Assembly: GCF_009931435.1 (NCBI RefSeq)
Contig: NZ_CP043414.1
Direction: 5' to 3' (one strand)
Length of the DNA stretch: 64,000 bases
Source of the DNA: Escherichia coli
GTDB taxonomy: Bacteria > Pseudomonadota > Gammaproteobacteria > Enterobacterales > Enterobacteriaceae
Position numbers: made by a program. Positions 31,601 to 34,600 of the stretch are shown in pieces. Within the stretch, counting starts at the first letter, position 1, and each line of letters begins with the position of its first letter.

Positions 31601-34600
31601 CCGTTCCATTCGGTGCAATTGTGACTCACGGTGACAATAACAATGGCAGCATTGTTGCTGAAAATGGTCAGGTCTATCTGACAGGACTTCCACAATCAGG
31701 AAAATTACAGGTTTCATGGGGCAACAATGCAAACGCTAAATGTATTGTTAATTACAAGCTTCCTGAAGTCTCTCCTGGGAACTTACTGAGTCAGCAAACA
31801 GCAGTCTGTCGCTAAGGAACACTAGATTATGAAACACAATAGCATTATTTTCCTCGGTTTATGTCTGGGGTTAACCACCTATTCTGCTTTATCTGCAGAT
31901 AGCGTTATTAAAATTAGCGGGCGCGTCCTGGATTATGGCTGCACAGTTTCATCTGATTCGCTTAATTTTACCGTAGACCTACAAAAACACAGTGCCAGGC
32001 AATTCCCAACGACTGGAAGCACAAGTCCAACCGTTCCTTTCCAGATTACGTTAAGTGAATGTAGCAAAGGGACTACGGGGGTTCGGGTTGCATTTAGCGG
32101 GATAGAGGATTTAGAAAATAATACTCTGCTGAAACTGGATGAAGGAAGCAATTCTGCTTCCGGTTTGGGTATTGAAATTCTGGACGGAAATATGCGCCCA
32201 GTAAAAATAAATGACCTTCATACCGGAATGCAGTGGATCCCTCTGGCTCCTGATCAGGATAATATTTTGCCTTACTCGGCCCGTTTGAAGTCAACACAAA
32301 AGTCCGTCAATCCAGGACTGGTTAGCGCTTCGGCAACATTTACCCTTGAATTTCAATAATCAGAGTCAGATATGAATAGAACTTTCCAAAGACTTCTGTT
32401 GGCTACGCTCTGTGCGCTATTTTCAGCAACTCTTCAGGCCGCTGATGTCACTATCACTGTTAATGGTCGGGTAGTTGCTAAACCCTGCACTATTCAAACC
32501 AAAGAGGCTAGCGTTAATCTCGGGGATCTTTATACACGCAATCTGCAACAACCAGGTTCTGCATCTGGCTGGCACAATATTACTTTATCATTAACCGATT
32601 GTCCGATTGAAACAAGTGCAGTGACGGCAATCGTAACAGGTTCAATTGACAATACGGGTTATTACAAAAATGAAGGTAGTGCCGAAAATATTCAGATAGA
32701 GCTGAGGGATGACCAGGATGCTGCGTTAAAAAATGGCGATAGCAAAACGGTTATTGTTGATGAGATCACTCGTAATGCACAGTTTCCACTTAAGGCAAGA
32801 GCTATCACGGTGAATGGAAACGCAAGCCAGGGAACGATCGAGGCGCTAATCAATGTGATCTATACCTGGCAATAACATCGATTCGATTTTATAAGCCTCT
32901 TTTTTAAATCAATTTTTAACCTAAGGATTTATCATGGGAAAAAAAATTAGTATAAATGTCCTGTTCAGTATTTATTTTCTTTTGATGGCAGGTAAAGTCT
33001 TCGCCTTCAGTTGTAATGTTGATGGTGGGTCAAGTATTGGCGCAGGTACAACTTCTGTGTATGTTAATCTCGATCCTGTCATTCAACCAGGTCAGAATCT
33101 GGTTGTAGATTTGTCTCAGCATATAAGTTGCTGGAATGATTACGGCGGCTGGTACGACACAGATCATATTAACTTAGTACAAGGCTCAGCTTTCGCAGGC
33201 TCCCTACAGTCATATAAAGGATCGCTGTACTGGAATAATGTGACCTACCCCTTTCCGTTGACGACAAATACCAACGTGCTGGATATTGGTGATAAGACAC
33301 CGATGCCCTTACCGTTAAAACTCTATATTACCCCTGTCGGGGCGGCCGGTGGCGTTGTTATAAACGCGGGAGAAGTTATTGCTCGCATTCATATGTATAA
33401 AATTGCAACGTTAGGAAGTGGAAATCCGCGTAACTTTACATGGAATATTATTTCAAATAACAGTGTTGTTATGCCAACGGGCGGCTGTACCGTTGATAGT
33501 CGTAATGTCACAGTGAGTCTCCCGGACTTTCCTGGAAGCGCAGAAATACCCCTGGGCGTATATTGCTCAAGTGAGCAAAAGCTCTCATTTTATCTTTCGG
33601 GCGCTACCACTGACAGTGCCCGACAAGTGTTTGCTAATACAGCACCTGACGCAACAAAAGCATCAGGAGTCGGTGTCTCCCTGATGCGTAATGGAAAAAT
33701 ACTGGCTACGGGAGAAAATGTCTCCCTGGGAACTGTAAATAAAAGCAAAGAACCCTTGGGCTTAAGTGCAACTTATGGACAGACAGGAAGCAAGGTCGCA
33801 GCTGGAGCAGTACAGTCAGTCATTGGCGTTACATTTATCTATGAATAATTGTGATGTTGACCCTGTTATACTTTAGGTTGTGCTTTCCATTCACTAAAAT
33901 TACGCGGATAATTCTTTCCTGAAAGAAATTATCCTACACCTGTAAGAAAATCCGCGCACAATTGAAGTCAGAGTCTTATTTTATATATTGAAAAGTATGT
34001 TAACTTAAAGACTATGAGAGATGATGCTTAACTTATCGCATTTATACTATTCTGTTATTTGACGATAATGAGTTAAAAATAGAATGAGAGTAGCCCCCTA
34101 CTCTCATATATCCAAATGGCCGATAAACCCATTATATATACTGCGCATCATCGCTATTACAAATCCTAATAATTCATTTCCACACAGGATAAGCTGATGA
34201 AGAAAAAAATTGAATCCTACCAGGGAGCTGCCGGTGGTTGGGGGGCTGTCAAATCTGTAGCGAATGCAGTCCGTAAGCAGATGGATATACGCCAGGAAGT
34301 GATTGCCATGTTTGACATGAATAAGCCAGAAGGCTTTGACTGTCCAGGATGTGCATGGCCAGATCCTAAGCACAGCGCGTCATTCGACATTTGTGAAAAC
34401 GGCGCAAAAGCAATCGCCTGGGAAGTCACCGATAAGCAGGTGAATGCCTCTTTTTTCGCTGAGAATACGGTTCAATCATTACTTACCTGGGGAGATCACG
34501 AACTCGAGGCTGCGGGGCGTCTCACTCAACCTTTGAAATATGATGCCGTCAGCGACTGTTACCAGCCATTAAGCTGGCAACAAGCTTTCGACGAAATTGG

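Follow-up and report, generated by a model that had tools for sequence, protein, structure and literature searches.

A probable EvgA operator upstream of ydeP in a rare, diverged allele of Escherichia coli

Introduction

Does the palindrome that lies upstream of ydeP in a rare Escherichia coli allele, which is about 7% diverged at this locus, serve as an operator for EvgA? The sensor kinase EvgS, once activated by mild acidity, phosphorylates the response regulator EvgA. This acid pathway is established (PMC7174508, PMC11210196, PMC4283999). The gene ydeP, named as EvgA-regulated in the first-pass annotation of this DNA, is strongly induced by acid (PMC7174508, PMC4283999, PMC11210196), and its direct regulation by EvgA is stated in the literature (PMC7174508). 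Direct regulation has likewise been described for emrK and yfdX (PMC5706723), and every gene known as a direct EvgA target has a binding site for the regulator (PMC4283999).

The DNA considered here, referred to as the window, is a stretch of 64,000 nucleotides (NCBI RefSeq assembly GCF_009931435.1, contig NZ_CP043414.1). Comparisons at the sequence level indicate that the palindrome very probably corresponds to the EvgA operator already known from ydeP, which this rare allele has conserved. Below, the box itself, its recurrence at other genes, its conservation and its relationship to the promoter are examined, together with a second box in the window and a possible third half-site.

Sequence and position of the ydeP box

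The ydeP coding sequence (34197-36476, + strand) specifies a putative molybdopterin oxidoreductase of 759 amino acids involved in acid resistance; molybdopterin oxidoreductase domains are present in the protein, which is identical to K-12 YdeP at 750 of 759 residues. The order ydeQ, ydeP, safA, ydeO is annotated both in K-12 and in the near-identical record NZ_CP027579.1. Between the 304-codon reading frame at 32934-33848 and the 759-codon frame of ydeP (34197-36476) lies the ydeQ-ydeP intergenic region of 348 bp. Within it, an 18-bp inverted repeat, ATCCTACACCTGTAAGAA, can be read directly at 33931-33948, with its centre 257.5 bp upstream of the ydeP start codon.

The repeat agrees with TTCYTACA-NN-TGTARGAA at 15 of the 16 specified positions; its sole mismatch to TTCYTACANNTGTARGAA is an A for T at position 1. 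It can be written as ATCCTACA-CC-TGTAAGAA, with a distal half-site at 33931-33938 and a promoter-proximal half-site at 33941-33948, and no strand is assigned to the box as a whole. The arms are self-complementary at six of eight positions, the exceptions being position 1 (A/T) and position 4, where C stands against T (both Y). The EvgA-box-like palindrome proposed in the first-pass annotation is therefore present with a single mismatch, at slightly different boundaries: the interval given there, 33931-33949, contains the box plus one extra A, and the 17-mer quoted, TCCTACAccTGTAAGAA (33932-33948), falls inside the box and omits its first base. In K-12 as in the window, this is the single EvgA-box-like sequence in the ydeQ-ydeP intergenic region.

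Recurrence of the motif at EvgA-regulated genes

The pattern TTCYTACANNTGTARGAA is reportedly the one described for EvgA sites in the work of Masuda and Church in 2003 and of Itou et al. in 2009. As a check on this consensus, three K-12 loci (32 kb plus the 8-kb ydeP locus) were scanned with it. All matches with at most two mismatches lie upstream of reported direct EvgA targets, namely emrK/evgA (where the match sits in the divergent region), frc, yfdX, yegR, safA and ydeP. The frc (yfdW) site matches the consensus perfectly. At three mismatches there are two extra matches: yfdX has another upstream site, and the ydeO gene contains a match that is probably due to chance. The inverted TTCPyTACA half-site arrangement, to which the first-pass annotation referred, holds up well against this set of targets.

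Could the box instead be bound by another LuxR/NarL-type regulator, such as RcsB, or by GadE at a GAD box? The inverted repeats recognised by this family are short and rich in TAAGA/TCTTA, and the acid-resistance network includes several of its members. Nevertheless, such an assignment is highly improbable. It fits poorly with the target set of the 18-mer pattern, which marks precisely the reported direct targets of EvgA and not those of RcsB or GadE; in addition, the ydeP promoter is EvgA-dependent, and GadE, GadW, GadX and RpoS exert no control over it (PMC7174508).

Chance occurrence

Short degenerate motifs may arise by chance, and at a threshold of three mismatches the window gives some room for this reading: two matches are found, against 0.73 expected, and 15 of 100 shuffled sequences yield two or more, which is not significant. 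Given this outcome at a lax threshold, the test was redone at two mismatches and with a weight matrix. At two mismatches or fewer, the same count of two in 64 kb compares with an expectation of 0.04, none of 100 shuffles reaches it, and both matches fall in promoters of EvgA targets. For one mismatch or fewer, base composition predicts 0.003 matches per 64 kb, or 1.6 × 10^-5 in the 348-bp intergenic region.

The palindromic weight matrix was trained only on the five K-12 EvgA-target sites other than that of ydeP. It places the ydeP box, at 22.5 bits, at the top of 63,983 window positions; the runners-up are the safA site discussed below and then a position at 12.5 bits. The score of the ydeP box exceeds that of every shuffle, the maximum across 30 shuffled windows being 17.6 bits. 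Together with the conservation described in the next section, where the half-sites are invariant while their flanks diverge, the matrix and the two-mismatch count effectively refute a functionless chance match, the probability of which we regard as negligible. Unaided reading of raw sequence had, it appears, located a real regulatory site.

Conservation among alleles

The K-12 orthologue of the box is AGCCTACACCTGTAAGAA (L001 5231-5248, corresponding to NC_000913.3 1,586,730-1,586,747). It occupies the same intergenic position in the same orientation, upstream of the same gene, and the comparison with K-12 suggested in the first-pass annotation shows the two sites aligning column for column, with 17 of 18 bases identical. 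The one difference is at position 2, which is T in the window and G in K-12, so that the window box is one base nearer to the consensus. Between the box and the transcription start, the two promoters differ at five positions in 65 bp. Their -10 hexamers read TAACTT in the window and TAATTT in K-12, and the window leader is 5 nt longer. The upstream flank of the box is strongly diverged, including a 10-bp insertion.

This K-12 site is, to judge from orthology, presumably the 18-bp ydeP repeat that is reported to have been studied experimentally by Masuda and Church (2003) and Itou et al. (2009). EvgA is said to have shifted the K-12 ydeP repeat in the gel assays of Masuda and Church in 2003, and mutated versions of the repeat are reportedly part of that work or of the 2009 study by Itou et al. 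Mutation of the repeat is reported to abolish the EvgA-dependent induction of K-12 ydeP and of b1500-ydeO.

For a broader comparison, ten alleles were aligned: those of the window, K-12, seven E. coli strains spread over the similarity ranking, and one stray contig. A cross-species scan with a 23-mer from the ydeP leader matched a single contig, from a mis-binned metagenome-assembled genome (MAG), and the comparison of alleles is accordingly one within E. coli. Variable columns number 32 of 82 (39%), plus a 10-bp indel, from the ydeQ stop codon to the box; 3 of 18 in the box; 6 of 65 from the box to the inferred start; and 35 of 183 in the leader. The variable box columns are confined to position 2 and to the central pair left free by the consensus, which reads CC, CT or TC. 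Both half-site cores are invariant across the ten alleles. Position 2 is T in seven of the nine E. coli alleles, and G in K-12 and in the stray contig. Constrained half-sites around a free central spacer form the pattern expected of an operator bound by a dimer.

The same alignment bears on a different proposal, in which the palindrome is, or also is, part of a stem-loop that ends or stabilises the transcript of the ydeQ fimbrial operon. The box is indeed bracketed by GC-rich complementary arms, CGCGGAT (33903-33909) and ATCCGCG (33950-33956); as RNA, the segment 33900-33960 has a folding energy of -13.0 kcal/mol (z -3.8), compared with -25.8 kcal/mol (z -6.2) for its K-12 equivalent. A T-run does not follow the stem, however, the sequence there being CACAATTG, and a terminator scan of the + strand from 33800 to 34250 found no terminator-like site. 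The left arm varies in four of nine E. coli alleles (window, WP4-S18, strain 104 and 19AR0646), whereas the right arm is invariant, so these changes are uncompensated. Nor would a stem-loop explain the conservation of the half-sites or the recurrence of the motif in six other promoters. With both the T-run and compensatory changes lacking, this proposal was rejected as very unlikely.

Promoter and leader of ydeP

If the box is an EvgA operator, as the motif, its orthology and its conservation suggest for 33931-33948, its position relative to the promoter becomes relevant. The ydeP transcript would begin at 34014 (+ strand), at the A of ATGAGAGATG, by transfer of the K-12 leader; that K-12 start, at -178, comes from the definition of a probe in another paper and is not a measured 5' end. 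The published K-12 leader begins ATGAGAGATGATGC, and its first 14 nt map uniquely to window position 34014. A putative extended -10 element, TGtTAACTT (TGtTAATTT in K-12), lies at 33998-34006 on the + strand and ends 7 nt before this start; the -35 region is poor. The resulting 5' leader (34014-34196, + strand) spans 183 nt, the 5 nt in excess of K-12 being due to a 5-nt insertion. It contains a 10-bp hairpin at 34084-34107; an Rfam scan of 33700-34400 gave no family match.

Relative to the start at 34014, the box would cover -83 to -66, with its centre at -74.5. A consensus promoter scanner does not list the extended -10 and gives TTGAAG-16-TATATT at 33962-33989 instead, which would place the centre of the box near -56. 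This candidate was set aside: the extended -10 is preferred because the K-12 leader starts at the equivalent of 34014 and because the safA promoter keeps the TGnTA element and not the TATATT -10 of the scanner. A second ydeP start besides that at 34014 may exist. What the allele gains from this analysis is annotation of already known biology: the box, a predicted -10 element, a predicted start and a leader.

The safA-ydeO promoter

The second EvgA box of the window, CGCCTACAGCTGTAAGAA, lies upstream of safA-ydeO at 36595-36612, again with no strand assigned. It has two mismatches to the consensus, scores 19.9 bits and is orthologous to TGCCTACAGCTGTAAGAA in K-12. Its architecture resembles that of the ydeP box: a weaker half-site is distal, a perfect TGTAAGAA is proximal to the promoter, and a TGnTAnnnT extended -10 follows. 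In the safA promoter, the candidate for the latter is TGtTATATT (36662-36670, + strand), 52 nt after the box, and the same distance of 52 nt separates box and -10 element at ydeP. Over the 75 nt that follow each box, 44 positions are identical between the promoters in an ungapped alignment, a value reached by none of 20,000 shuffles. The promoters differ in the distal half-site, which is CGCCTACA in safA and ATCCTACA in ydeP, and in the leader, which is much shorter in safA; the centre of the box is 120.5 bp upstream of the safA start codon, as opposed to 257.5 bp in the case of ydeP.

These distances also help to judge how EvgA might act once bound. It could work mainly by displacing silencing of the H-NS type and not by recruiting RNA polymerase. 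The GC content of the intergenic region (32-35%, compared with 44-50% in the flanking genes) would suit such silencing, as would the far upstream location of the box, at -74.5, given that the extended -10 of the promoter is reasonable. The strict conservation of the spacing between box and -10 element in ydeP and safA speaks against this, since it suggests a stereospecific contact with the polymerase; furthermore, Itou et al. (2009) reportedly obtained activation of these promoters by EvgA in purified in vitro transcription. Relief of silencing is therefore unlikely as the main mode of action, and possible as a contribution.

Proposed mode of action of EvgA

In the preferred reading, which takes EvgA to be an activator of transcription at these promoters, the palindrome would be a high-affinity operator for this NarL/LuxR-type regulator, serving the ydeP promoter. 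A dimer of phosphorylated EvgA would occupy the two inverted TTCYTACA half-sites, one subunit on each. The box, at -83 to -66, would stand upstream of a weak sigma-70 promoter with a poor -35 region, an extended -10 element and a start near 34014. Bound upstream in this way, EvgA would drive transcription of the 183-nt leader and ydeP; further contacts of low specificity may form in the interval from the box to the -35 region and contribute to activation. An equally spaced copy of this module would serve safA-ydeO 2.6 kb downstream. Both the start site and the geometry of activation at ydeP are predictions, which follow from the K-12 leader and from the shared layout of the two promoters.

The regulator in a related strain

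The evgA gene is absent from the 64-kb window. Strain 2013C-4282, in which the intergenic region is 99.7% identical to that of the window, carries emrKY, evgA, evgS and yfdXWUVE in the K-12 arrangement, with evgA and evgS intact. Its EvgA protein is identical to that of K-12 at all 204 residues, and contains a receiver domain (Response_reg) and a LuxR-type helix-turn-helix domain (GerE); DNA recognition should therefore be the same. The other EvgA boxes of this strain are also unchanged. Its EvgS differs from that of K-12 at 55 of 1197 residues. Natural variants of EvgS may fail to respond to pH (PMC5706723), and there is thus no guarantee that acid induces the system in this lineage. At the level of the DNA, the wiring from EvgA to ydeP and safA-ydeO within the inducible acid-resistance cascade appears intact in the rare, approximately 7% diverged allele.

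A possible third half-site

A tentative third element resembling a half-site, GTCTTATT, is located at 33973-33980 (+ strand) in the ydeP promoter. It has the orientation of the distal half-site, starts exactly 42 bp, or twice 21, further downstream than that half-site does, and would cover -41 to -34. In six K-12 EvgA promoters, a half-site matrix was scored at set distances from the box, over 266 combinations of offset and orientation. The best mean score outside the box is found at +42 in the same orientation, with a corrected p of about 0.004 on the assumption of independent promoters, which may, however, be paralogues of common ancestry. The sequences at +42 are GTCTTATT in ydeP, GTCCTATT in safA, ATCCTATT in yegR, GTCCTCTG in emrK and CTCTGATT in both frc and yfdX. 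The form (G/A)TCYTATT, lying over the -35 region, is seen in ydeP, safA and yegR, and is weaker in emrK. At +21, the half-site matrix found no recognisable half-site in the six K-12 promoters.

The closest characterised homologue of EvgA is BvgA of Bordetella pertussis, which acts at the fha and fim3 promoters, and whose dimers are spaced at 21 bp. The BvgA promoters contain an upstream inverted repeat of TTTCCTA-like heptads that resembles the TTCYTACA of EvgA; from this primary site to the -35 region, secondary sites of lower affinity follow at a spacing of about 21-22 bp. In both systems the primary site lies well upstream of the -35 region, and the tentative, weak half-site-like element of the EvgA promoters, at a multiple of 21 bp and reaching into this region, may be a further parallel. 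Unlike the BvgA promoters, those of EvgA have an intermediate (+21) position without a recognisable half-site.

The +42 element, together with the sequence and spacing shared by ydeP and safA, would fit a mechanism of the BvgA type. EvgA-P bound at the strong box would then nucleate a series of further EvgA contacts, weakly specific and extending to the -35 region, and what EvgA-activated promoters have in common might be a cassette of about 85 bp and not only the 18-bp box. We offer this as a speculative and rather unlikely extension, and a role for the third element, which its position and orientation would suggest, is a lead and not a finding. In the allele alignment, the third element of ydeP is invariant.

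Possible kinship of EvgA promoters

Judged by sequence comparison, the EvgA promoters look like related cassettes which share more than a common 18-bp box. A second EvgA box, CGCCTACAGCTGTAAGAA, is found in the safA-ydeO promoter (window 36595–36612), where it is followed, 52 nt past the box, by the extended −10-like element TGtTATATT (36662–36670). The spacing between box and −10 element is the same in the safA and ydeP promoters, exactly 52 nt in both. Downstream of the EvgA box, the two promoters are identical at 44 of 75 positions (33949–34023 in ydeP versus 36613–36687 in safA), a value as high being reached in none of 20,000 shuffles. 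The comparison also included K-12 promoter regions, namely those upstream of yegR (locus L004, 8314–8436) and emrK (locus L003, 3414–3536); the sequence ATTTAAACACTA is common to the yegR upstream region and the −10/start region of K-12 ydeP.

The ydeP promoter also contains a half-site-like element, GTCTTATT (33973–33980), that begins 42 bp, or 2 × 21, from the start of the distal half-site. At the same +42 offset, a half-site-like element recurs in safA and yegR, and in weaker form in emrK. The element at 33973–33980 may give EvgA a secondary point of contact, lying over the −35 region.

Inverted repeats near the ydeP box and in the leader

The first four bases of the ydeP EvgA box are overlapped by a near-perfect palindrome, GGATAATTCTTTC-CT-GAAAGAAATTATCC (33906–33934). 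This palindrome is limited to the window's allele; six substitutions weaken the versions in K-12 and the other alleles. The box is also bracketed by the arms of a GC-rich inverted repeat (33901–33909 and 33950–33958), set 40 nt apart. In K-12 the arms read TGCGCGGAT and ATCCGCGCA, of which the window keeps eight of nine bases, and the K-12 version, folded as RNA, reaches −25.8 kcal/mol (z −6.2). The right arm is invariant, and changes in the left arm are not compensated.

The ydeP leader itself harbours a 10-bp hairpin, ATGAGAGTAG-CCCC-CTACTCTCAT (34084–34107), with a folding energy of −13.4 kcal/mol (z −6.6) for the window's allele and −7.2 kcal/mol for K-12; through two substitutions, the stem is longer in the former than in the latter. 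On the minus strand the hairpin is terminator-like, with a T-run after it.

Divergence of the locus and variation among strains

The 8-kb segment from ydeS to ydeN (31168–39182) is unusually diverged for E. coli, with 92.9% identity to K-12; it may have been imported from a divergent Escherichia lineage. Among 5,327 complete genomes, only 18 carry the window's ydeQ-ydeP intergenic allele (33849–34196) at ≥99% identity; nearly all others are 80–90% identical across this region, and eight fall at 90–95%. Upstream of ydeS, ydeR and ydeQ, the window contains an intact fimbrial usher gene (883 aa; 29164–31815). For its K-12 counterpart, ydeT, the annotation gives no more than a shorter protein with an usher domain.

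In strain 2013C-4282 (record L014; evgS at 23854–27447), EvgS differs from that of K-12 at 55 of 1197 residues, and EvgA is identical. Natural EvgS variation of such kind can abolish pH sensing (PMC5706723).

In a scan of genome contigs with a 23-mer invariant across all sampled E. coli, the sole match was JARKOR010000108.1 (13 kb), and the E. coli species representative was not among the matches. In the database this contig is assigned to a metagenome-assembled genome of 'Candidatus Nanosynbacter'; its ydeQ-ydeP region is E. coli sequence of the K-12-like type, so the contig is almost certainly mis-binned.

In strain AMSCJX03 (NZ_CP058355.1), the ydeP regulatory region has been lost naturally: an IS1 element, beyond which lies an integrase fragment, adjoins a 5′-truncated ydeP and takes the place of the entire promoter, EvgA box included.
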